Part shown: positions 4,160 to 63,482 of the stretch, in pieces | Position numbering within the stretch: position 1 is the first letter of the stretch | Layout of the letters: every line of letters begins with the position of its first letter | From: Escherichia phage AV118 | Length of the DNA stretch: 64,000 nt | Direction: 5' to 3' (one strand) | Sequence record: OR352948.1 | The notes under the pieces: model-generated | The model's database searches: none | Told to the model about the DNA's origin: nothing | What the model saw: the letters and a program-made list of their open reading frames with translations, nothing else | Program-made: the position numbers and the translations under genes

Positions 4160-4606
4160 TTAATAACTCTGCAGAATGAATTTAAAGTTATCAGCCAGAA
4201 GACGGTTCATTTCAGTGAGTGTTTGATATTCTGATGTATGGTTGCGAGTGAATGCCAGAGCCAATTGACCTTTACCGTAACCAGTGGTCAGTGGTTTCAT
4301 GTTCTTAGCTGCAACAAAGATTACATCATATTCAATATTGTTAGTGCCCATGGTACGGGCTAGTTGCGAACGGCCTTGACGAATGTGAGAAAGAATTGCA
4401 TCCAACCCTTGTTTAGAACGTTGACGTCCTACAAAGAATCGTGCTGCAACTTGACGCCAGTCGGATGAACCTTTAACAAAGAAGTAAAAACCTTCACGAG
4501 AACGAAACTCTTTAGAAACTTCAGAACCGTATTCACCATTACGAACTACTGCAACAACTTCACCGCCAACTGCCAGAAGGTCTTTACGAGTTAAATATTT
4601 GGACAT
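4160..4606 (-). CDS. ndd: Ndd-like nucleoid disruption protein (148 aa)
   Basis: Size and position between rIIB/denB region and gene 52; C-terminal LALAFTRNH...[12 protein letters not shown] segment resembles T4 Ndd from memory. Confidence 0.5.
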
Positions 4607-4650
4607 GCTAATTTCCTCAATTGATTAATGTTTTTGTAATCCATGAGAGC

Positions 4651-4680
4651 ATTATACTCTGCTCTCAAGAGTTTGTACAA
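4651..4680 (-). promoter_or_regulatory. Early-type promoter (-10 TATAAT inside 7-bp inverted repeat) upstream of ndd; part of a 35-nt sequence repeated at 51517-51551
   Basis: Minus-strand TGTACA-N18-TATAAT; gagagca/tgctctc inverted repeat flanks the -10. Confidence 0.4.
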
Positions 4681-4682
4681 TT

Positions 4683-4883
4683 TTATTCGGCTATATCAGA
4701 ACGTTCAAAAAGCTCTTCAACAGTTAAACATTCAGTGTCATCTTCAATAAAGAATCGAGTCCAACACGTTGGGGCGATACAGTTATGAGTTTGTCCGGCG
4801 ATAGAAGCTACACGAATAAGCTGCTGACCATTATTCAGAACAAATTTTTCACCAATTTCAACATCTTTAAAAAGCTTAGCCAT
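4683..4883 (-). CDS. hypothetical protein (66 aa)
   Basis: Minus-strand ORF downstream of promoter at 4912-4941. Confidence 0.4.
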   Translation of the reverse strand: MAKLFKDVEIGEKFVLNNGQQLIRVASIAGQTHNCIAPTCWTRFFIEDDTECLTVEELFERSDIAE

Positions 4884-4911
4884 TTTGTGTTCCTCATGTT
4901 TCAGTAGAACT

Positions 4912-4941
4912 ACTATACCATAATCCTACCTTGTTGTAAAC
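4912..4941 (-). promoter_or_regulatory. T4-early-type promoter (GTTTAC-N18-TATAGT)
   Basis: Read on minus strand. Confidence 0.45.
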
Positions 4942-5133: not shown

Positions 5134-5397
5134 TCATATCTCAACTTCCGCGAGTTCCATATATCCTTTGTTGATAACCTCTTTAAGGTCTTTAGAAAGA
5201 ATAACACCAAAATGGTCGTTCATATGTCCATTAACTAAACGAGTTATTTCGGCTTCAGATGACATATAAGGCACGTCTGAGTCCCAATGAGATAGTCCCA
5301 AATGGGTATAAATCATCCCTTCGTCATCTGCAGTGTTGTACATTGAAACAAATTCGCCTGTTACTTTATGTTTTGCGTAGAAAAATTTAAATTTCAT
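5134..5397 (-). CDS. hypothetical protein (87 aa)
   Basis: Minus-strand ORF with AGAGGA Shine-Dalgarno; promoter 5424-5453 upstream. Confidence 0.45.
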   Translation of the reverse strand: MKFKFFYAKHKVTGEFVSMYNTADDEGMIYTHLGLSHWDSDVPYMSSEAEITRLVNGHMNDHFGVILSKDLKEVINKGYMELAEVEI

Positions 5398-5423
5398 GAT
5401 GTTATCCTCTTTTAGATAGGACT

Positions 5424-5453
5424 ACTATATCATAGTCCTACTTAGTTGTAAAC
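5424..5453 (-). promoter_or_regulatory. T4-early-type promoter (GTTTAC-N18-TATAGT)
   Basis: Read on minus strand; -10 flanked by aggacta/tagtcct inverted repeat. Confidence 0.45.
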
Positions 5454-15247: not shown

Positions 15248-15474
15248 TAGTAAGTTTCCTTCCAATAAGTTGTACCATTTTCAGTGATTTCACGGAAGAT
15301 ACCATAGATAGGCATTTCATCGCCTAGTTTTTCGTAAACGTAAACCACTTCAGTGTAGCATAAAAATTCAGTCCAGTTTTTCTGTACAACAACTAAATCA
15401 GGATTAAACAGAACATCTTCAAACTCATCGATGTTTGAATCAGTAGTTACGTTTTTAATGATTTGACGTTTCAT
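15247..15474 (-). CDS. hypothetical protein (75 aa from ATG at 15474)
   Basis: ATG at 15474 with AAGAGGAG Shine-Dalgarno; the longer ORF-track form runs into the promoter. Confidence 0.45.
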
Positions 15475-15502
15475 AATATTCTCCTCTTGTTTTGATAGGT
15501 CT

Positions 15503-15532
15503 ATAGTATCATAGACCATAGTTGTTGTACAT
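15503..15532 (-). promoter_or_regulatory. Early-type promoter (-10 TACTAT, weak -35)
   Basis: Shares the gataggtctata -10-proximal motif with other promoters in window; approximate coordinates. Confidence 0.35.
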
Positions 15533-16056
15533 CATTTTAGCAAAATAAAATCAACTTGTTCTGCCAATGAACGTCTAAACATTAATTGACAACTTCCGAG
15601 GATGAAATCAGGTGCTTCATAGACCGCGATGTAGTATCCTTTAGCTTTCAAGAGTTCAACATCCACCTGGTCATCAAACCATGCATAAACCGCGTCAACA
15701 CTTTCAAATCCAAAATAGAACCCTTGAGCCCAATCTTCACTCAATTCAAATGTGTTCTCAATTCTATAATATCTTAAGATATTTTGTTCAAGGAGTTTGT
15801 CTTCATTTATTGTAGGACGATTAGGGACATTATAGTTGTCGCCGTGATGGTAGAAGTTACCCGAGATTATTCCATGCTTATCAAGGAACTCCCATGTTTC
15901 TTCAGAGTTGTCGGTGCCCGACCAACCGTATGGCGAACGAGGTTCTTTATTCCAAGAGGTTTCCCAAATTCTGACGGCTTTACCGTCTTCGATAGCAATT
16001 CCTGGTAATGATTCACGTTGAGTACAAAAACTACGTTCTACGCGGTAAACTAACAT
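15532..16056 (-). CDS. hypothetical protein (174 aa)
   Basis: Minus-strand ORF, ATG at 16056. Confidence 0.45.
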   Translation of the reverse strand: MLVYRVERSFCTQRESLPGIAIEDGKAVRIWETSWNKEPRSPYGWSGTDNSEETWEFLDKHGIISGNFYHHGDNYNVPNRPTINEDKLLEQNILRYYRIENTFELSEDWAQGFYFGFESVDAVYAWFDDQVDVELLKAKGYYIAVYEAPDFILGSCQLMFRRSLAEQVDFILLK

Positions 16057-16082
16057 ATTATTCTCCTCTGGTTGATATGGTT

Positions 16083-16111
16083 ATAATATCAAAACCAGAG
16101 GAGAAGTAAAC
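16083..16111 (-). promoter_or_regulatory. T4-early-type promoter (GTTTAC-N17-TATTAT) with -10 inside an 11-bp perfect inverted repeat (16063-16073 / 16093-16103)
   Basis: Read on minus strand. Confidence 0.5.
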
Positions 16112-17030: not shown

Positions 17031-17060
17031 ATTATACTCCAACCATCCTTGGTTGTAAAC
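17031..17060 (-). promoter_or_regulatory. T4-early-type promoter (GTTTAC-N18-TATAAT) with caacca/tggttg inverted repeat in spacer; 27-nt core repeated at 60056-60082
   Basis: Read on minus strand. Confidence 0.5.
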
Positions 17061-20942: not shown

Positions 20943-21524
20943 CTAAAAATTCAACATTTTCAAATGAATGATTTTGTATAATCGAGATAAAGGGTCATAT
21001 TCTAAGTCTTCAATTTCCACAATCTCAAATCTAGAGATACCTGAGACCATGTACTCTTGTTCAGATTCAATCATATCTAGGACGTCAACACGCGTTTCTT
21101 CCATAACATGCTTAGGGTTCTTTCCGGCGAGTACAATGTTAACCATGTTTTGGTAGTAATCAAAAATGAATGGAGCATTCCTGAGACTAAGAATAGTGTA
21201 CGTCTGATACTCCCAACTCCCAGAGAATTGACGAGCTGTACTGAAATCAGTTGTGAACGATGTTACTCGTCCAGGAGACCAATGGCATCCAACAGAAAGA
21301 AGTGAAAGACGTTCTACTTCTTCTGGAGTTACACCACGGTAGAGTTCTACCGGTACTGTAGAAGTCATATGCTTACGAACAAGATGGTCTAATTCATAGT
21401 GGAAATCCGGGTCTTCCTTAGAATCAGTGCAAGCCCAGAGAATGTTTTGTTCTTGGCGGGTGAATTTGCTATCAATCAGATTTGTTAGGTATTCGCGTTC
21501 TTGAAGTTCAGATTGACATGTCAT
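20943..21524 (-). CDS. modB: ADP-ribosyltransferase, ModB-like (193 aa)
   Basis: Paralogue of adjacent ART gene; GGAGG Shine-Dalgarno. Confidence 0.55.
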   Translation of the reverse strand: MTCQSELQEREYLTNLIDSKFTRQEQNILWACTDSKEDPDFHYELDHLVRKHMTSTVPVELYRGVTPEEVERLSLLSVGCHWSPGRVTSFTTDFSTARQFSGSWEYQTYTILSLRNAPFIFDYYQNMVNIVLAGKNPKHVMEETRVDVLDMIESEQEYMVSGISRFEIVEIEDLEYDPLSRLYKIIHLKMLNF

Positions 21525-21740
21525 GATAGACCTCCGTTTAAAGATAAGCCTATCATAACACGAGAGGAGGGAATGTAAACTACTTTTTAAGCTTTCCTAC
21601 TAAAGGACCATCAGGACCAGGTTGTTCTAACATGAATAAGGATGCTTTAAAAAGCAATGTCAACCCTTTCACCATTCGATACCATGTCTCAAAGTCTTTT
21701 TCCTTGATTTCTAGTAAGAATTTCTCTTTCAATTTATCTT

Positions 21741-26599: not shown

Positions 26600-26885
26600 C
26601 TGTGATTTCGGTTACGATATCTTTGTTATCGAAATTAGGGTCACAATACAAAACATAGTTGTACTGCATGATACCGCCAGACTTAAGTTGTTCAACAACT
26701 TTATTAACCATATTAGGACGGTCTCGTTTAGTGATGTTCATGATATCAGAGAAGATTTGTTGTTCAACATCTTCTTGATTTGCAGTCATTGACCACTCAC
26801 AGAGGTCTTTATCATAACCTGCCGTAACTGGAGCCGGTGCACATGATACTGCAAGTAAGATTGCTGCCAATGATAACTTTTTCAT
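26592..26885 (-). CDS. Secreted/lipoprotein-like periplasmic protein (97 aa), Sp (spackle)-like by size and position
   Basis: N-terminal signal peptide MKKLSLAAILLAVSC; T4 Sp is a 97-aa periplasmic protein in this neighbourhood. Confidence 0.45.
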   Translation of the reverse strand: MKKLSLAAILLAVSCAPAPVTAGYDKDLCEWSMTANQEDVEQQIFSDIMNITKRDRPNMVNKVVEQLKSGGIMQYNYVLYCDPNFDNKDIVTEITGE

Positions 26886-26948
26886 TTTAACTCCTTAGTT
26901 GATTTGATAGGACTACTATACTATAGTCCATCTATAATGTAAACAAGT

Positions 26949-27887: not shown

Positions 27888-28201
27888 ATTTCCTCGCAAA
27901 ATGCCCATTCAGCGTGATAAACTGTAGCGCCTTTAGTATCATTCATTTGAACTACATCTACCGGAGAAATTACTCGATAGAGACGTGGTTCACCTCCATA
28001 AGAGCGTGCTGCTCGTCCTGCATAAATCTTTGCTAAACCGATATCTTCAGTAAAGAATACACGATCCAAGTTTTTCTTACGTCCAGTTTCAGACAGAACT
28101 CCTGTTTCTTCAGGAGGACAAAGCATGTTTTCGATGTTAGCTGAACTACTTGAACCGTGATAAAAAATCTTAAATTCTACTTTACAATCGATGGTTTTCA
28201 T
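27884..28201 (-). CDS. hypothetical protein (105 aa)
   Basis: ATGA overlap with dmd; promoter with 14-bp inverted repeat upstream (about 28206-28255). Confidence 0.45.
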   Translation of the reverse strand: MKTIDCKVEFKIFYHGSSSSANIENMLCPPEETGVLSETGRKKNLDRVFFTEDIGLAKIYAGRAARSYGGEPRLYRVISPVDVVQMNDTKGATVYHAEWAFCEEI

Positions 28202-28256
28202 TTTGTTCTCCAGTAGTTGATAGGTCTATAATAACACAACTACTGGAGAAGTAAAC

Positions 28257-28631
28257 TTAAAAACGTAATTTAGATACATCTGCGTTGATTTCGGTTTGGT
28301 TTGCGTCGTATGCAATTAAACGAACCGCTTTAGATGGGTCATTCAATGCATAGAAATGATGGAACATTGCTCGAACGATATCACCATTTACGAGTTCTAC
28401 CTGGATAGGAGAACCTTTTTCGAGTTGGAAATGTTCATAAGCTTTGATGGTTCGCAGATAATCAAGTTTTTGATTTCCGGCTCCAACAATTTGTACGATA
28501 CGTTTGCCCATGTTTTCCATACGAGATACAATAGTTTTAGGAGCAAGAATAACGTAGGTTGCCAGCGGAGAAACTACTTCAACAGTTGTGTTTTCGGTGA
28601 TTGCAGTAAAAATTGCTTGAGACATATTCAT
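28257..28631 (-). CDS. hypothetical protein (124 aa)
   Basis: Minus-strand ORF downstream of promoter 28661-28690. Confidence 0.45.
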   Translation of the reverse strand: MNMSQAIFTAITENTTVEVVSPLATYVILAPKTIVSRMENMGKRIVQIVGAGNQKLDYLRTIKAYEHFQLEKGSPIQVELVNGDIVRAMFHHFYALNDPSKAVRLIAYDANQTEINADVSKLRF

Positions 28632-28660
28632 AATGTTTTCCTCTTGGTTGGTGTAAGTAC

Positions 28661-28690
28661 ATCATATCATGCCTAGAGGAAGATGTAAAC
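28661..28690 (-). promoter_or_regulatory. T4-early-type promoter (GTTTAC-N18-TATGAT)
   Basis: Read on minus strand. Confidence 0.45.
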
Positions 28691-43821: not shown

Positions 43822-44708
43822 TTAGGTTTCCTATTAGCATAATAATTTGTCCAAGACCGGATAGCACCTTGGTATGATTCATCATTAAAACCATGCTGAA
43901 TTGCATGTTTTCTAAATGTAATATAACTTGGTTTTCCTAAAGCAATCCACAATTCCTTTAATTTTTGTTCATGAAATATCCATGTACCTCTAGCTTTAGA
44001 TTTTCTGAATTTATCCTTAAATTCTTTGGTTGCATTTCTTTTCGAAGCTGCGATAGAGGCCTTTGCTCTATTTTCAGGTTTAGACCAATACAATGTTTTA
44101 GATATTTTTATTTTATCTTTAACATTAGGAGAATTCATTATATCTTTAAATTTTAAAGCAAAATCTCTATCGCTAAACATTTTTTTAGAAAGAATAGAAA
44201 CTTTCTCTCTTCGTTCTTTGGTCCAATATGTTTTTTGAAATTCTCTAATTGCGTTTAAATGATTCTCCGACAATTTGCAATTTTTTCTAACACCGACGTA
44301 ATCTTCGTTTATTTCGTTTTTAGAAAGTTTTACTATTTTGCCTGTTTTTAAATTTTTATACGGTGCATATCCTTTAGCTGATATTCTAGACTTCTCGTTA
44401 GCATAAGCCTTATTAAAATATTTTTCATTTGAAACGGCTTTAACATTGAGTTGGAATAGTCTTTCTATTCTTCTAGGGTCTAATGTGGTTTCGCCTAAAA
44501 TTTTTACAGAATATTCGCCTTGGTCTATTAATCTGGTATATAAAGGAGAATACGAGGAATTAACACTACCGGTATATATTTTACCGGTAGAATCTTCAAT
44601 AATATCCTTTCCATTAAAATGACACGAAACTTTAGAACCTATATAATAACACGGGTATTCATTTTTAATCTCACGATTATAAAAGGTTATAAGATATATT
44701 AAATTCAT
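43818..44708 (-). CDS. GIY-YIG (Seg-like) homing endonuclease (296 aa from ATG at 44708)
   Basis: N-terminal LIYLITFYN...YYIGSK GIY-YIG motif; basic C-terminal DNA-binding region; inserted between rpbA and 45; weak Shine-Dalgarno. Confidence 0.55.
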   Translation of the reverse strand: MNLIYLITFYNREIKNEYPCYYIGSKVSCHFNGKDIIEDSTGKIYTGSVNSSYSPLYTRLIDQGEYSVKILGETTLDPRRIERLFQLNVKAVSNEKYFNKAYANEKSRISAKGYAPYKNLKTGKIVKLSKNEINEDYVGVRKNCKLSENHLNAIREFQKTYWTKERREKVSILSKKMFSDRDFALKFKDIMNSPNVKDKIKISKTLYWSKPENRAKASIAASKRNATKEFKDKFRKSKARGTWIFHEQKLKELWIALGKPSYITFRKHAIQHGFNDESYQGAIRSWTNYYANRKPK

Positions 44709-44713
44709 AATTA

Positions 44714-45130
44714 TCAAGCAGCAACCATCTGCTTTTTAATAGTTTCAGGCAGTGATTCAATATATTCTGGAATTTTAGAAGCAACAATTTCGCCAGCTGC
44801 AATTAGTTGTTCGTCGGCATCAACACAGTAGGAATCTTCCAGACGCTCAGAACCGTCTTTATCAAGAACGATTTTTGCGCCAGCTTCAATAGAATCGTTA
44901 TAGTGCTTACGCATCAGATGAATCCACATATCAGATACATCGTTATCAATAAAACCATAAATCATAAAACGAGTTTCTTGTGGCAAAGATTGGAGTTTTT
45001 TAGCACTTGCGTCATCACAATGCAGGACCCATGCTTTACGAACACGATTATGGTTATGTGGGTTAGCGTCAGTACGGATAGAAGTAACTTTCAGATCAGC
45101 AGCAGTGAAACCTTTAGCAGTAGTAAACAT
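44714..45130 (-). CDS. RpbA-like RNA polymerase binding protein (138 aa)
   Basis: Position between 46 and 45 as in T4; size near T4 RpbA. Confidence 0.45.
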   Translation of the reverse strand: MFTTAKGFTAADLKVTSIRTDANPHNHNRVRKAWVLHCDDASAKKLQSLPQETRFMIYGFIDNDVSDMWIHLMRKHYNDSIEAGAKIVLDKDGSERLEDSYCVDADEQLIAAGEIVASKIPEYIESLPETIKKQMVAA

Positions 45131-45142
45131 ATTATTTCTCTC

Positions 45143-45343
45143 TTATTCGTAGAAGTCGGTAACTGTCCATGCAGAATTGCGATTAGACATTATTTTATTA
45201 TACTCGTCTTTAAAAGCAGATTTGAGCATTTGTTCAGTAACAATATGTTCTTCACCTGAAAACGTATTGGTCAGAACATATTTTTTAATTTCAGGGACAA
45301 CAAGAAGATGTTGTCCGGTTGAATACTCCATGTTGTTCTCCAT
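45143..45343 (-). CDS. hypothetical protein (66 aa)
   Basis: Minus-strand ORF. Confidence 0.4.
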   Translation of the reverse strand: MENNMEYSTGQHLLVVPEIKKYVLTNTFSGEEHIVTEQMLKSAFKDEYNKIMSNRNSAWTVTDFYE

Positions 45344-45385
45344 TTAATTTGATGTGGTCATTATAACCACATCGTGTTAAAGCGT

Positions 45386-48573: not shown

Positions 48574-49373
48574 ATACCTTTAAATTTGGAGTAAATTATA
48601 TTGTGGTACGATATATCAGGAAACCCTTTATCGACCGCAATTTTTCTAAACTTATTAGGACTTATTTTACCACACTCCATCCATAATGCAAACAACTCGT
48701 CAAAATGCTCATATGCTGGACCTCGACGAGCTTTTGACACAGCAGCACTTATGCGAGCCTTTTTCTCAGAATCAAGGTTTTTAAGAGAATTACTTATTTT
48801 ATTTTTTTGCTCTTCTGAATTGAAGGTGCCTTTTTCCCAGCCTAAAGGTTGGCTTCCTTCATGGAACATTTTTCTTGAAGTTCCATTGGTATACCATATT
48901 TTACCTTTATTGTGCCCTGATGCTTTATATTTTGGTGAGCGTCCTTTTATAAATCCTTCAGGTATAGTAGGAGCAAATGTTTGTTCAAGGGTTTCTGGGT
49001 TATACGAATGTATGTTATTTTTGGCGTTATGAGACCCATATAATGGGTGATTTTTACCAGAAACATCACGCCCAAAGAAACCAGTTGGTGATGCCAAAGA
49101 CATATTCATATACAAAGGATTTTTATGAGCTTGAACTCTAATTTGATAGTCCTTTTCCACCTTTAAAGCTTCTTCTCGTGTTGGATGTTCGCTCAAAATA
49201 CAAGAATCAAACAACGTAGGATTTTCTAAAAGTTCTTTGTTATAAATTTTACGATAGGCTTTAGATAGAATAGTACCATGATACCCGTTTAAATGTTTTT
49301 CTAAGCTAGTCGAACCTATGTAAAAAGGTGGTAGCTTATCTCCAGAATAAATTGTCAAATAGACTATAAACAT
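48570..49373 (-). CDS. GIY-YIG (Seg-like) homing endonuclease with NUMOD3-type repeats (267 aa from ATG at 49373)
   Basis: YLTIYSGDKLPPFYIGST GIY-YIG motif; AAAGGAG Shine-Dalgarno; own promoter 49398-49427. Confidence 0.6.
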   Translation of the reverse strand: MFIVYLTIYSGDKLPPFYIGSTSLEKHLNGYHGTILSKAYRKIYNKELLENPTLFDSCILSEHPTREEALKVEKDYQIRVQAHKNPLYMNMSLASPTGFFGRDVSGKNHPLYGSHNAKNNIHSYNPETLEQTFAPTIPEGFIKGRSPKYKASGHNKGKIWYTNGTSRKMFHEGSQPLGWEKGTFNSEEQKNKISNSLKNLDSEKKARISAAVSKARRGPAYEHFDELFALWMECGKISPNKFRKIAVDKGFPDISYHNIIYSKFKGM

Positions 49374-49397
49374 ATATTTCTCCTTTGATTTAAGGAG

Positions 49398-49427
49398 ATT
49401 ATAACACGCCTTTAATGAAGCGTAAAC
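49398..49427 (-). promoter_or_regulatory. T4-early-type promoter (GTTTAC-N18-TATAAT) driving the Seg-like gene
   Basis: Read on minus strand. Confidence 0.45.
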
Positions 49428-49452
49428 AAAAAAAGGAAGCACTAGGCTTCCT
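49428..49452. terminator. Bidirectional hairpin terminator (aggaagc-actag-gcttcct) flanked by A7 and T4 runs
   Basis: Read directly. Confidence 0.45.
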
Positions 49453-50775: not shown

Positions 50776-50930
50776 AAGTACCTCTTGGCTCAATTCATAG
50801 GTCTATTATATCATAATATTTAGAGACCTATCTTAAAGCACGAGATACTATCAAAGATACGTAACTTTCATAAAGTTGTCGACTTAAAATTCACCAAACT
50901 TTTCTTCGGTTATAGCGATTCAAGATAGTT

Positions 50931-51158: not shown

Positions 51159-51487
51159 TTTACCGCCTTAACAATTTTCAAGTCAACGAATTTTTTCTTA
51201 CGTTGATTTTTCATACGACGGATAGTCTTTTCAGAGATTTCATGTTTCTGATAAGCTTTAGATTCAACACCAAATGCAGCAACGTCAAATTCAGAAAGAA
51301 TATATTGTACTAGAATTTCACGAATAGAATTACGTCCAATTTTCTGGTCGTGTTTTTGCATGATTTCATAAAGACGGAATTCCCACGCGTCAAGAACTTG
51401 AGGAGTAACAATATTGCCGGATTCCAGAAGAGCAACAACTTTATCGAAAGCGAAAGAATTAACTACGTTTTTGATTTTAGTAGACAT
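51155..51487 (-). CDS. hypothetical protein (110 aa from ATG at 51487)
   Basis: ATG with GAGGAAA Shine-Dalgarno downstream of promoter 51525-51554. Confidence 0.4.
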   Translation of the reverse strand: MSTKIKNVVNSFAFDKVVALLESGNIVTPQVLDAWEFRLYEIMQKHDQKIGRNSIREILVQYILSEFDVAAFGVESKAYQKHEISEKTIRRMKNQRKKKFVDLKIVKAVK

Positions 51488-51524
51488 ATTATTTTCCTCG
51501 GTTATTTTATTATCCAATGAGAGC

Positions 51525-51554
51525 ATTATACTCTGCTCTCAAGAGTTTGTAAAT
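51525..51554 (-). promoter_or_regulatory. Early-type promoter (-10 TATAAT inside gagagca/tgctctc inverted repeat); second copy of the 35-nt repeat
   Basis: 35 nt identical to 4643-4677. Confidence 0.4.
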
Positions 51555-52196: not shown

Positions 52197-52484
52197 TCAG
52201 AGGTTGATTGATACAATGCGTTTGATAAAATTCACTTCACTTACTGAAAGGTCTTTAAGACCGATTGATTCTAAACGCTGAGTAAGCGTCAACATCGTGA
52301 TATAGTCCCATTGTGTTTTAGACGTTTGATAAGTACGGACGCCATTAGCAATTTCAACATGCAAATCGGAAATGGTAACGAATACCGGTCGCTCGTCATT
52401 AACTTTAAGGGTTAGAACAACTTTCTTTGAATCTAAACTAATCATTTTATTTTCCTCTGTGGTAGATGGTGTTAATCTTAACAT
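52197..52484 (-). CDS. hypothetical protein (95 aa)
   Basis: Downstream of GTTTAC-N17-TAAGAT promoter (about 52490-52520). Confidence 0.4.
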   Translation of the reverse strand: MLRLTPSTTEENKMISLDSKKVVLTLKVNDERPVFVTISDLHVEIANGVRTYQTSKTQWDYITMLTLTQRLESIGLKDLSVSEVNFIKRIVSINL

Positions 52485-52612
52485 ATCTATCGAGGATGTA
52501 AACTGTTTTATGAAAATATTTTTTGATTTGAGAGGGGCACAAGGAGATAGTGAAGTGAAGATTCCAATGGATTATATTAGAAATGAGATAAAGAAGACCA
52601 GGCGGCACCTGG

Positions 52613-55531: not shown

Positions 55532-56343
55532 AATTCTAATTTATCCTTTTGAAATTCTTCGTCTAAATATGGGTTCCAACCCATTTTAAACCTTTTGATG
55601 AAATTATCAATTCTAAATTTCGGTAAATTTAACTCCGCAAAAATAGATGATTTACTTTTAAAATCTGGACCTAAATAATCATATAAAATTTCTGCGTATT
55701 TTAACCATAATATATAAGTACCAGATTTAATTGCTCTAGGAGTTTTCCAAGGTTTTACGCCGTACATCGGATTTCCACTTCCTTTATGCCTGATAGAAGA
55801 TGAAATTCCAATTTTAATTTTAGCTTCCTTTGTGTGCGAAAATCCATGATGTGGATTTTCTTTCCAGTATTTTTTAGAAGCTTCTGATATTTTCTTTCTG
55901 GCTAAATTAGTATGATGCTTTCCATAAAATCCATGATTTTTACCTTTATTACGATTTCTTTTAATCATGGTTATTGATTGCTTTTCTCTAGTTTCTTTAG
56001 AAGGAGAAACACCGTACGTTGTAAATTGACCATTAGCATATGCTAAATTAAAATACTCTTTATTCCATATATCTTTTTCTATATTCTTTTGAAATTCAGC
56101 TTCAATGCTAGTTATTTGTTCATCTCCGACTAATTGAAAATATAATATTTCAACTTTCGGTGTTTCTTTCAACAGAGCTTTTTGAAATTCGGAAGATGAC
56201 GAAGACGAATAATAAAATTTACCATTTTTATCAATAATATTCGTTCCGTCAAAAGTGCAATTGGTTTTACTTCCAATATAATAATATGGCGGGGTTTTAG
56301 CATTAATTCTACTAATAAATGATAGTTTATATACTACATTCAT
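55522..56343 (-). CDS. GIY-YIG (Seg-like) homing endonuclease (273 aa)
   Basis: VYKLSFIS...PPYYYIGSK GIY-YIG motif; NUMOD-like repeats; ATGA coupled to gene 49. Confidence 0.6.
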   Translation of the reverse strand: MNVVYKLSFISRINAKTPPYYYIGSKTNCTFDGTNIIDKNGKFYYSSSSSSEFQKALLKETPKVEILYFQLVGDEQITSIEAEFQKNIEKDIWNKEYFNLAYANGQFTTYGVSPSKETREKQSITMIKRNRNKGKNHGFYGKHHTNLARKKISEASKKYWKENPHHGFSHTKEAKIKIGISSSIRHKGSGNPMYGVKPWKTPRAIKSGTYILWLKYAEILYDYLGPDFKSKSSIFAELNLPKFRIDNFIKRFKMGWNPYLDEEFQKDKLELCL

Positions 56344-56813
56344 TTTAAACTCTTTCTAAGCTGCTTCTTAAATGAAGCTATTAATTGTGTTTTGGTGTCA
56401 GATTCATTATATTCAAATCCTCTTTGAAGCATCTCGGCCATCATTTCCTCTTTTCCTAAACGAGAAAATTCCTTTGATTTATCTCCAACGAAGTTAGGGT
56501 GAATATTATTTTGGGTGTAATCGGATTTTAAATAAGTAAGTAAATTTTCTAACCATTCAAGATAATCAACGCCTTGTCCCTTTAAACCAGAGCGATTAAA
56601 TTTATGTTTCATTTGACCTTCTGCAGCATTGCAGAGATTACAAAGCAATCCACGTACCTTTCCTGCTTTTGGTCCATTTAATTCATGGTCATGATCGAGG
56701 TGATTAGCTTGAACATCAGGATTTAGTTCTCGTTGGCAAATTAAGCATTTACCGTTTTGTGCATCATAAAATTTCTGTTTTTCTTCTTTATATAATTTGC
56801 CAGTCAATAACAT
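56340..56813 (-). CDS. 49: Endonuclease VII gp49 (Holliday junction resolvase, 157 aa)
   Basis: Zn-binding Cys pairs and His-Me finger (HLDHDHELNG...CNLCN); size as T4 gp49; AATAAATA late-promoter-like motif about 30 nt upstream. Confidence 0.8.
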   Translation of the reverse strand: MLLTGKLYKEEKQKFYDAQNGKCLICQRELNPDVQANHLDHDHELNGPKAGKVRGLLCNLCNAAEGQMKHKFNRSGLKGQGVDYLEWLENLLTYLKSDYTQNNIHPNFVGDKSKEFSRLGKEEMMAEMLQRGFEYNESDTKTQLIASFKKQLRKSLK

Positions 56814-56855
56814 AATAAAACCCTTACCTTAAATAGATAAGGGTATTTATTATTT

Positions 56856-57341
56856 TCAAGTATTGTAAAACATTTGATGCAATCGCTTATATTGCCGAAT
56901 CATTTGGTCAGAAAAAGAAATTTGAGTTTCAAGCCATTCAATGTATTCTGCGGCAGCTTGCATCAGGTTACCTTCATAGCCATCGTTATTTTCTTGTGCA
57001 GCTAATTTAGCTAATGCGTATGAAATACGTTCACCTTGAAAATCGGCTTTAGGCTTCTGAACAACTTGATTAGTTCGCTCTACAACTTCTTCAATTTCGC
57101 CATTTTCGACTGATTCAGTATTCCACAAACACCAATACGTAATTGGCTTATCGTAGATGTTAATAATCTTTCCATCAGAAAGTTCAATTTCAATAATTCC
57201 AGTATCAGGTTCTATATCATCTTCACATTCTTTTGCAAGTTCACGAACTTTAAAGACAGTACCTGCACTAAGTTCCGGCCAGTAATTACACAGCCCTGTA
57301 TCAGCACGATTAATTCTAAACCACTTATCTACTGTAATCAT
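56856..57341 (-). CDS. hypothetical protein (161 aa from ATG at 57341); positional analogue of T4 Pin
   Basis: ATG at 57341 with GGAGATGGG Shine-Dalgarno gives the T4 Pin length. Confidence 0.4.
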   Translation of the reverse strand: MITVDKWFRINRADTGLCNYWPELSAGTVFKVRELAKECEDDIEPDTGIIEIELSDGKIINIYDKPITYWCLWNTESVENGEIEEVVERTNQVVQKPKADFQGERISYALAKLAAQENNDGYEGNLMQAAAEYIEWLETQISFSDQMIRQYKRLHQMFYNT

Positions 57342-60055: not shown

Positions 60056-60085
60056 ATTATACTCCAACCATCCTTGGTTGTACAT
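60056..60085 (-). promoter_or_regulatory. Early-type promoter (-10 TATAAT; caacca/tggttg inverted repeat in spacer); second copy of the 27-nt repeat
   Basis: 27 nt identical to 17031-17057. Confidence 0.4.
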
Positions 60086-61142: not shown

Positions 61143-61670
61143 TTATGCGTGAACCGTCTTTAAACGTTCTTCAAATTTCCGAAGAGTACTAATACGTTCT
61201 GCTTTCTGTTTTGTATAGTTTGCAATACGTTCTGAAGTGAGAGCGTATCGTTCGTTTACTGATTCTTTCATGAAGTCAGGGATTTCACGAGAAGCTTTAA
61301 TTTCATCAAACTTATCGAGTACTGCCTGGTCTTCAGCGATTAAATTTTCGTACATCTCGATATCTTTCTTGATAAACTCGATATCTTCCTGGGTTACTTT
61401 GGATAAACGAGATGCTTTATCCTTTTTGTACTGCTCGTTAGTTTCACGAGACCAGAATAATGTACGTTTTTTGTTAGTGTTTTTGTAGACTTCCACAATT
61501 CCAACTGAATCGATGATAACAATCCAATTCCAGCGAGATTTGAAAATCTGACCTCCGTCCACGGTAATCTCGTTACCATAAGCAATGTCATTAAAGAACT
61601 TACTTTGTGCTTCAGATTTAAATTTACCGTCGTTATAATTTACCAGGTTGAAAATATCTTTAGCGTTCAT
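61143..61670 (-). CDS. hypothetical protein (175 aa)
   Basis: GGAGG Shine-Dalgarno; promoter 61698-61726. Confidence 0.45.
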   Translation of the reverse strand: MNAKDIFNLVNYNDGKFKSEAQSKFFNDIAYGNEITVDGGQIFKSRWNWIVIIDSVGIVEVYKNTNKKRTLFWSRETNEQYKKDKASRLSKVTQEDIEFIKKDIEMYENLIAEDQAVLDKFDEIKASREIPDFMKESVNERYALTSERIANYTKQKAERISTLRKFEERLKTVHA

Positions 61671-61697
61671 GTTTTACCTCCAGTAGTTGATAGGTCT

Positions 61698-61726
61698 ATA
61701 ATAACATAACCATAGACCTTGTAAAC
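61698..61726 (-). promoter_or_regulatory. T4-early-type promoter (GTTTAC-N17-TATTAT) with aggtctat/atagacct inverted repeat around -10
   Basis: Read on minus strand. Confidence 0.5.
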
Positions 61727-63136: not shown

Positions 63137-63174
63137 TTTATTCTCCAATTTACTCATTTCGTTTCGATAGGTCT

Positions 63175-63203
63175 ATAATAACATGTTTAAAGCAAAAGTA
63201 AAC
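63175..63203 (-). promoter_or_regulatory. T4-early-type promoter (GTTTAC-N17-TATTAT)
   Basis: Read on minus strand. Confidence 0.5.
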
Positions 63204-63424: not shown

Positions 63425-63453
63425 TTTGTTCTCCTCTTGTTTTGATAGGTCTA

Positions 63454-63482
63454 TAATAACATATCCTAAAAGCATGTACACT
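63454..63482 (-). promoter_or_regulatory. Promoter (-10 TATTAT with upstream TGCTTTT MotA-box-like element)
   Basis: Shares the gataggtctataata motif; approximate. Confidence 0.35.

Follow-up and report, generated by a model that had tools for sequence, protein, structure and literature searches.

Inverted repeats around the −10 element of T4-type early promoters probably encode RNA hairpins, the longest of which are predicted to mask the ribosome site

Promoter-early stem-loops (PeSLs) of T4-type phages were reported from RB49/phi1, and PST/T4 and nt-1/KVP40 followed (Arbiol et al. 2010, PMC2839356; Comeau et al. 2014, PMC4122927). Within these cassettes the stem-loop, for which G-T pairs are shown, may take any of five positions: between the −35 box and the −10, overlapping either box, upstream of the promoter, or downstream of it. 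The roles proposed are those of a terminator or attenuator and of a recombination linker, and one RB49 PeSL stem-loop was reported to lower the expression of a downstream lacZ to about the same extent as rrnB T1 (PMC2839356; PMC4122927). Hairpins of a second kind sequester the ribosome site in long transcripts of the T4 genes e, soc, 49, and I-TevI, the late promoter being located inside the DNA that encodes the hairpin (PMC3014915). Early-promoter shut-off in T4 is unexplained in the published account.

The window analysed here is the whole stretch of 64,000 nucleotides from Escherichia phage AV118 (OR352948.1). It shares 99.7% identity with Escherichia phage AV115 over a 4-kb probe, and the phage is a Mosigvirus, an RB69/JS09-type relative of T4. 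The early region is covered from arn/motA through rIIA, topoisomerase, motB, dda, modA/B, 41, uvsX, 43, 45, 55, and nrdD to the nrdC region. Nearly all genes of the window are carried on the minus strand, and the promoters are therefore read on that strand. Gene coordinates were carried over from AV115 via BLAST, and every intergenic gap was printed in gene orientation. Genes are co-oriented and most intergenic gaps contain no terminator; within gaps of 55–75 nt lie promoters of the form GTTTAC-N16–18-TAnnnT, each followed by a Shine–Dalgarno (SD) sequence and ATG. An objective scan returned 26 intergenic early promoters on the gene strand. Between 56800 and 59100, the promoter-rich pin/49.x/nrdC region, AV115 is 69%–84% identical to the window or has no match, with flanks at 97%–100%, and on the sequence this is probably a replaced hyperplastic segment. 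A 533-nt stretch between annotated genes at 44180–44714, to which an AV115 CDS maps only from CDS base 12 and with a small indel, may be a frameshifted or differently started ORF; its text resembles a GIY-YIG/seg-like gene.

The promoter regions of the window and PeSLs share the same layout: a short intergenic gap opens with a stop codon, AT-rich sequence follows, then a strong early promoter of sigma70 type with its boxes 17 ± 1 nt apart, a stem-loop, and finally SD and ATG. Stem-loops in the window occupy positions described for PeSLs, including that over the −10, and both kinds of element are dispersed and repeated; those of the window may, like PeSLs, be associated with gene replacement. 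Published stem-loops of T-even-type (PST/T4) PeSLs are, however, located just upstream of the promoter, whereas those of the window surround the −10, and RB49 PeSL stems are tracts of G/C, whereas window stems are AT-richer. Two further sites, at 17031–17060 and 60056–60085 (minus strand), belong to a PeSL subclass different from the inverted repeats (IRs) that enclose the −10.

The original prediction held that several early promoters of this phage carry their −10 in the loop of an IR, and all six of the sites that it named were confirmed. A perfect IR of at least 7 bp surrounds the −10 at 8 of the 26 intergenic early promoters, in excess of promoter-like sites in coding sequence (3 of 41). 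For a wider comparison, gene-proximal early promoters were pooled from the window, T4 (two 50-kb stretches), RB69, RB49, and Yersinia phage TG1, and the best RNA duplex between spacer and downstream leader was scored at each promoter against shuffles of the spacer. Across these five T4-like genomes, 37 of 91 early promoters have a duplex z below −2, against about 2 expected, and the mean z is −1.68 (t-test p = 5e-10); the difference between sense and antisense z-scores is modest (Wilcoxon p = 0.023). A weak 5-bp pairing of TGATA with TATCA, which is part of the promoter and leader consensus, was excluded from the counts, and the IR sites are not all independent, since the cassettes are dispersed repeats. 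The feature is that of a subset, roughly between one-third and one-half of the early promoters, and not of the whole class. T4 itself has a 10-bp perfect repeat around the −10 of the dmd promoter and a 13-bp one upstream of cef, along with long stems that contain G·U pairs at the promoters of motB.2, alc, alt.-2, and the ndd.4 region.

Two classes of site can be told apart by their 3′ arm. At class A sites this arm is the SD of the next gene and the promoter spacer is its complement; at class B sites it covers about −6 to +2 and leaves the SD free. The two longest IRs belong to class A, their downstream arms being the SD itself (GAGGAG and GGAG) 4–8 nt before ATG. One of them encloses the motB.2 early promoter at 16054–16111 (minus strand; gene name taken from the RB69 annotation), which runs from the −35 GTTTAC (16106–16111) through the 5′ arm or anti-SD, UUCUCCUCUGGUU (16093–16105), to the −10 TATTAT in the hairpin loop (16083–16088), the 3′ arm AACCAGAGGAGAA with the SD inside it (16061–16073), and the ATG (16054–16056). 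Written out on the minus strand, the site reads GTTTAC-TTCTCCTCTGGTT-TTGA-TATTAT-AACCATATC-AACCAGAGGAGAA-TAAT-ATG. An 11-bp perfect IR had been predicted at 16063–16073/16093–16103; it is the core of a 13-bp perfect IR at 16061–16073/16093–16105, and that the 3′ arm is the SD had not been remarked. None of 300 flank shuffles reaches 13 bp (p ≤ 0.003), and the RNA hairpin folds with a minimum free energy of −23.9 kcal/mol (z −6.45). Opening of the ribosome site is computed to cost 20.3 kcal/mol when the RNA is read through from upstream, 1.4 when it starts at the promoter itself, and 6.1 in a spacer-shuffled control.

Four clades have the motB.2 hairpin, each with arms of its own, and in all four the 3′ arm covers the SD. 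The window and RB69 share UUCUCCUCUGGUU/AACCAGAGGAGAA, and a third clade has UUCUCCUCAUG/CAUGAGGAGAA. T4 has a 17-bp stem with three G·U pairs, which is worth −24.9 kcal/mol on the sense strand versus −13.2 on the antisense strand. In the fourth clade (L072/L085), the hairpin has moved onto the −10 and discriminator. Covariation was assessed on a sample of few clades and 6–16 sequences. In an alignment of two cleanly aligning clades, compensatory double changes occur at two pairs and 88% of cells are paired, compared with 28%–57% in slid controls. In a covariance-model alignment of 16 distinct sequences, a fitting by which counts lean towards structure by construction, the anti-SD:SD helix is 99.2% paired and five of nine pairs show double changes. 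When the T4 clade was aligned with the others in MAFFT, a 2-nt indel in the anti-SD shifted the helix out of register, and this alignment was replaced by the two-clade one and then by the covariance model. Single-protein searches of IMG/VR gave three loci each for motB.2 and ndd, and an alignment query yielded more.

The second long IR surrounds the early promoter of the RB69ORF040c homolog at 28199–28256 (minus strand), with −35 at 28251–28256, −10 at 28228–28233, and ATG at 28199–28201. A repeat of 12–14 bp had been placed at 28208–28219/28237–28248; in full it is a 14-bp perfect IR formed by the 5′ arm UUCUCCAGUAGUUG (28237–28250) and the 3′ arm CAACUACUGGAGAA (28206–28219), with the SD inside the latter. 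None of 300 flank shuffles reaches 14 bp (p ≤ 0.003), the RNA fold z is −5.33, and opening of the ribosome site costs 18.6 kcal/mol in read-through RNA against 2.2 in the own transcript and 4.0 with a shuffled spacer. Orthologs in other clades keep the anti-SD:SD pairing with arms that differ, for example ATCTCC/GGAGAT and TCCTC/GAGGA. The IR upstream of T4 cef (ATCAGTAGTTGAT/ATCAACTACTGAT; L065, 6570–6640) and that at 28206–28250 have a common core, CAGTAGTTG/CAACTACTG, at genes that are not orthologous; a cassette may have moved, or the two may have converged on the conserved leader ATCAACTACTG.

Three further early promoters on the minus strand are of class A. At modB (21522–21580; −10 at 21552–21557), a CCUCC-rich spacer pairs with the SD GGAGG, and opening costs 17.6 kcal/mol in read-through RNA, 5.0 in the own transcript, and 11.9 with shuffled spacers, against which the site has a z of 5.2; the RB69 ortholog is masked alike. 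The promoter at 52443–52503 (−10 at 52475–52480) pairs spacer UCCUC with SD GAGGA (duplex z −3.8), at opening costs of 8.4, 1.7, and 4.7 kcal/mol in read-through, own, and shuffled RNA, respectively (z 3.8), and its RB69 ortholog was also in the masking analysis. A weaker case is the promoter of the RB69ORF041c homolog (28629–28690), where spacer UUCCUCU (28675–28681) and SD AGAGGAA (28638–28644) form a 7-bp repeat around a 30-nt loop that holds the −10 (28661–28666); its duplex z is −3.98 and opening costs 6.3 kcal/mol in read-through RNA versus 2.5 in the own transcript. At 49373–49430 (minus strand) there is an anti-SD, CTCCTT, in the discriminator directly after the −10 (TATAAT-CTCCTT-A), which pairs with the SD AAGGAG; the computed opening cost falls there from 9.8 kcal/mol for read-through RNA to 2.8 for the own transcript. 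The gating logic there may be alike, with the 5′ arm just upstream of +1 and not in the spacer, and the arrangement is similar to that of the motB.2 promoter in the fourth clade.

Masking was expressed as the computed free-energy cost of exposing SD and AUG in read-through RNA, compared with the promoter's own transcript, whose start was taken from the position of the −10 (+1 about 7 nt after it), and with spacer shuffles. Masking that depends on the spacer was found at 5 of 25 promoters in T4, 3 of 17 in RB69, 1 of 6 in TG1, and 0 of 19 in RB49. The metric also recovers gene 49 (start 56813), a documented T4 case that served as a positive control. This gene, for endonuclease VII, occupies 56340–56856, has a ribosome site masked by 16.4 kcal/mol, and carries a late-promoter-like TAATAAATA just upstream, so that the known T4 arrangement is conserved in the window. 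Among window genes, a rank test of masking with versus without a promoter was not significant (p = 0.2); the extreme tail of masking held 4 of 21 genes with a promoter and 4 of 88 without.

We consider it probable, on balance, that the IRs encode RNA hairpins which form only in a predicted read-through RNA, where class A hairpins would mask the SD and class B hairpins would mark a message boundary. With the 5′ arm at about −30 to −15, inside the promoter spacer, any RNA entering from upstream would contain both arms, whereas the promoter's own transcript starts after the 5′ arm and therefore could not form the hairpin. At the class A sites (16054–16111, 28199–28256, modB, and the promoters whose −10 begins at 52480 and 28666), the spacer would thus serve as anti-SD to the SD in the 3′ arm, and the gene would be translated from transcripts of its own early promoter only, the read-through RNA being translationally silent. 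Such gating would restrict synthesis to the immediate-early burst and shield the gene cassette from transcription that arrives from upstream. Judged by the folding computations, translational gating appears to be the best-supported reading of class A.

Class A resembles the hairpins of T4 e, soc, 49, and I-TevI in that SD and/or AUG are paired, by computation, in long transcripts; of the window's sites, only those of class A have them paired in RNA entering from upstream (17.6–20.3 kcal/mol at the promoters whose −10 begins at 16088, 28233, and 21557). The promoter likewise lies inside the DNA that encodes the hairpin, and the own transcript, with its start assumed from the −10, opens at 1.4–5.0 kcal/mol. 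The two differ in the kind of promoter and gene. The T4 hairpins contain a late promoter (TATAAATA) and block early translation of late proteins, whereas class A has a sigma70 early promoter (GTTTAC/TATTAT) with an anti-SD spacer and serves early genes of host takeover (motB.2 and modB, and in T4 also the alc, alt.-2, and ndd.4 regions). In the absence of a late promoter and late gene, class A is therefore a variant of the T4 gating hairpins and not a member, and its predicted effect is the reverse of theirs: translation would take place only in the immediate-early period or only from own-promoter transcripts. Neither SD masking at an early promoter nor a mapping of T4 RNA ends was found in the literature searched, albeit older papers in subscription journals may note individual cases. 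The elements of the window can be counted among the PeSLs, and in the longest of them the type of T4 hairpin that masks ribosome sites would recur in a variant with an early promoter.

At class B sites, among them the promoters whose −10 begins at 4656, 51530, 5429, 61703, and 15508, the same computation finds no effect of the spacer on opening of the ribosome site. One such promoter, at 61668–61726 (−10 at 61698–61703), carries an 8-bp IR (p 0.02) of AGGUCUAU (61712–61719) and AUAGACCU (61692–61699), predicted as aggtctat/atagacct near 61693–61718, in which the SD is not involved. At 5395–5453 (−10 TATAGT, 5424–5429) the repeat expected as aggacta/tagtcct near 5418–5440 extends to 8 bp, UAGGACUA (5433–5440) with UAGUCCUA (5417–5424), at p 0.023 and a spacer–leader duplex z of −4.88; related cassettes lie at 4881–4940, where the stem has G·U pairs, and at 26883–26943. 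The ndd early promoter (4604–4680; −10 at 4651–4656) has an 8-bp IR of UGAGAGCA (4660–4667) and UGCUCUCA (4644–4651), with p 0.007. A promoter and IR upstream of a gene-55-region ORF (51485–51553; −10 at 51525–51530) have arms at 51534–51541 and 51518–51525. The gagagca/tgctctc repeats reported at 4647–4666 and 51521–51540 are these last two, 8 bp each, and belong to an identical 34-nt cassette of promoter plus IR at 4643–4676 and 51517–51550. The cef early promoter (15472–15531; −10 at 15503–15508) has a 7-bp IR, GGUCUAU/AUAGACC (15511–15517/15498–15504; p 0.04). All of these sites are on the minus strand, and RNA fold z-scores of the 8-bp IR sites range from −1.7 to −3.2.

Among class B hairpins, that at 51530 has an RNA fold z of −3.2, and its orthologs show double changes in four of eight pairs, with 95.8% of cells paired versus 31%–52% in slid controls; all four cells that are not Watson–Crick are G·U. 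AV115 annotation puts a CDS start at the ATG within the promoter's TATAATG (51526), and for the gene-55-region ORF a start at 51487, preceded by GAGGAAAA, seems much more plausible. The hairpins of class B are followed by no T-run and leave the SD unaffected. Since they are placed at the end of the upstream message and covary, the most economical proposal is that they would mark the 3′ boundary of that message, as an attenuator or a 3′-end stabiliser; this boundary role is also the weakest part of the explanation. A middle-type promoter at 45332–45385 (minus strand) has, as the letters read, the same architecture as the early promoters, its −10 TATAAT (45360–45365) lying inside an 8-bp IR of GAUGUGGU (45366–45373) and ACCACAUC (45351–45358); its GCTTTA we take to be a MotA box, from the described consensus.

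Cassettes of this kind may be exchanged and recombined. In the T4 clade (L088–L094, about 245–260), a canonical terminator hairpin (AAGGGCTTCGGCCCTTTTTT) stands in place of the promoter and IR cassette found at 51500–51553 of the window, and the replacement ends at the same TTGGATAATAAAAT junction, making it a clean modular swap. This one clear case, together with the AV115 divergence in the promoter-rich 56.8–59 kb, may tie the elements to insertion, deletion, or replacement between close relatives. Repetition of dispersed motifs, as in PeSLs, is seen in the 34-nt cassette, present twice, and in a 17-nt box, TATTATAGACCTATCAA, that comprises the −10 and the start of the leader. There are seven copies of this box on the minus strand (2334–2350, 15492–15508, 28217–28233, 50794–50810, 61687–61703, 63164–63180, and 63442–63458), against 0.02 expected by chance, with a different spacer at each; some of these can pair with the box and one with the SD, others with neither. 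The box looks like either a conserved initial-transcribed sequence or the product of promoter halves recombined at the −10. Three early promoters that have no IR (about 2350–2373, 63180–63203, and 63458–63481, minus strand) contain a MotA-box-like TGCTT(C/T)A in the −35/−10 spacer; they lie upstream of motA and of two genes in the nrdC region, and the motif suggests that an early and a middle promoter overlap there.

Likeness to PeSLs raises the alternative that all of the stem-loops are terminators or attenuators of upstream transcription, as proposed for RB49/phi1, with any pairing of the SD being incidental. The geometry of class B is indeed that of rescanned RB49 PeSL examples such as ATGGGAGTA/TACTCCCAT around the −10, a placement within the published range; the effect of the RB49 stem-loop on lacZ, the dispersal of the cassettes, and the canonical terminator that takes the cassette's place in the T4 clade all agree with such a role. 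Like intrinsic terminators, the IRs are hairpins at the 3′ end of the upstream gene. No T-run, however, follows any minus-strand IR around a −10 in the window (tails read, for example, TGGATTAC, TCTAAAAG, and ATCAACTA), the stems are less GC-rich than those of intrinsic terminators, and loops of 8–19 nt are long for them. The evident terminators of the window are of another make, namely GC-rich UUCG-tetraloop stems with a T-run, located upstream of the −35; on account of these and of the missing T-runs, intrinsic terminators were rejected. Furthermore, the 3′ arm of class A tracks the SD through sequence changes across clades, a tracking for which a plain terminator has no need, and the PeSL publication gave translation no consideration and never mentions it. 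A general terminator role is unlikely. Class A stems were found at none of 19 RB49 promoters.

Read-through RNA, in which we place the hairpins, is also not the only level at which such repeats might act. Cruciforms or single-strand hairpins in the DNA could modulate promoter opening, possibly contributing to early-promoter shut-off, or serve as recombination hot spots that shuffle cassettes. That shut-off wants an explanation and that one half, −10 plus leader, is joined to different spacer halves at seven sites of the window would suit this proposal, as would the two longest IRs: being perfect palindromes of 13–14 bp, they fold equally on both strands, and the strand argument therefore rests on the orthologs and the pooled set. 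There, in a strand-symmetric count of interior wobbles in 38 stems, the sense strand has 25 G·T and 8 A·C (p = 0.0046; from composition, a ratio of about 54:46 is expected). An excess of G·T on the sense strand points to RNA transcribed in the direction of the genes, and neither a duplex-DNA site nor a cruciform predicts such a bias. Stems with two or three G·U pairs, as at T4 motB.2, alc, and the ndd.4 region, would be mismatched on the complementary strand, which likewise speaks against cruciforms. Stems of 7–8 bp with 8-nt loops are poor formers of cruciforms, which counts against the proposal, and with the 5′ arm outside the transcription bubble no hairpin is possible in the open complex. 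A role in the DNA is therefore improbable, and the suggestion of a structure-prone promoter class is upheld in outline, the −10 being overlapped in some published PeSLs, albeit with the structure acting most likely in read-through RNA and not in promoter DNA.

It is very improbable that the IRs are products of chance, or that they came as by-products of the extended consensus of promoter and leader and were multiplied as promoter cassettes were duplicated. The consensus does hold a weak 5-bp palindrome (TGATA...TATCA), several IR-bearing promoters are copies of one another, and individual 8-bp cases have modest z-scores. Shuffles, however, never reach IRs of 13–14 bp, the arms are unrelated at non-homologous promoters in T4, TG1, and RB49, and orthologous sites, checked for absence of the repeat, retain the pairing through compensatory changes, an outcome that favours a real feature; chance is discarded as an explanation of the long IRs and of the entire class, and is largely refuted by covariation. 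A dimeric repressor operator over the RNA polymerase site, part of the original prediction, has next to no probability, for although a palindrome with the −10 at its centre is reminiscent of classical operators and T4 early promoters are shut off without a known factor, the arms are unrelated among promoters (TTCTCCTCTGGTT, TTCTCCAGTAGTTG, AGGTCTAT, TAGGACTA, TGAGAGCA, and GATGTGGT), their spacing varies from 6 to 30 nt with no shared half-site at a fixed distance, orthologs change both arms together and keep complementarity alone, and the wobble bias is strand-asymmetric.

The hairpins proposed for read-through RNA join two features of T4-type phages that were described separately, the PeSL cassettes and the hairpins that hide ribosome sites. 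For T4, RB69, and the phage of the window, they suggest that part of the "extra consensus" of early promoters is information at the level of RNA. Promoter strength measured on DNA fragments and RNA-seq coverage of polycistronic messages would then misjudge the protein output of class A genes. The regulatory logic is neat and apparently widespread in T-even-type phages, and would be no great surprise to the specialist. Should class A work as proposed, translation of host-takeover genes such as motB.2, modB, and alc would be restricted to the short lifetime of each gene's own early transcripts, and the arrangement would amount to a simple cis-acting timer and a reason why cassettes can shuffle without disturbing their neighbours.

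More tentatively, and with somewhat less than even confidence, this may extend to roughly one-fifth to one-quarter of the sigma70 early promoters of T-even phages (Tequatrovirus, Mosigvirus, and Tegunavirus, but not RB49), in which the spacer anti-SD would be a built-in translational insulator, such that a gene's own immediate-early transcript is translated and read-through RNA is silent. If so, the spacer anti-SD would add to temporal control a layer so far unrecognised, a counterpart of the late-gene hairpins of e, soc, and 49, and would render early cassettes autonomous, and it may help to explain how the synthesis of some early proteins is halted despite continued transcription through their genes.
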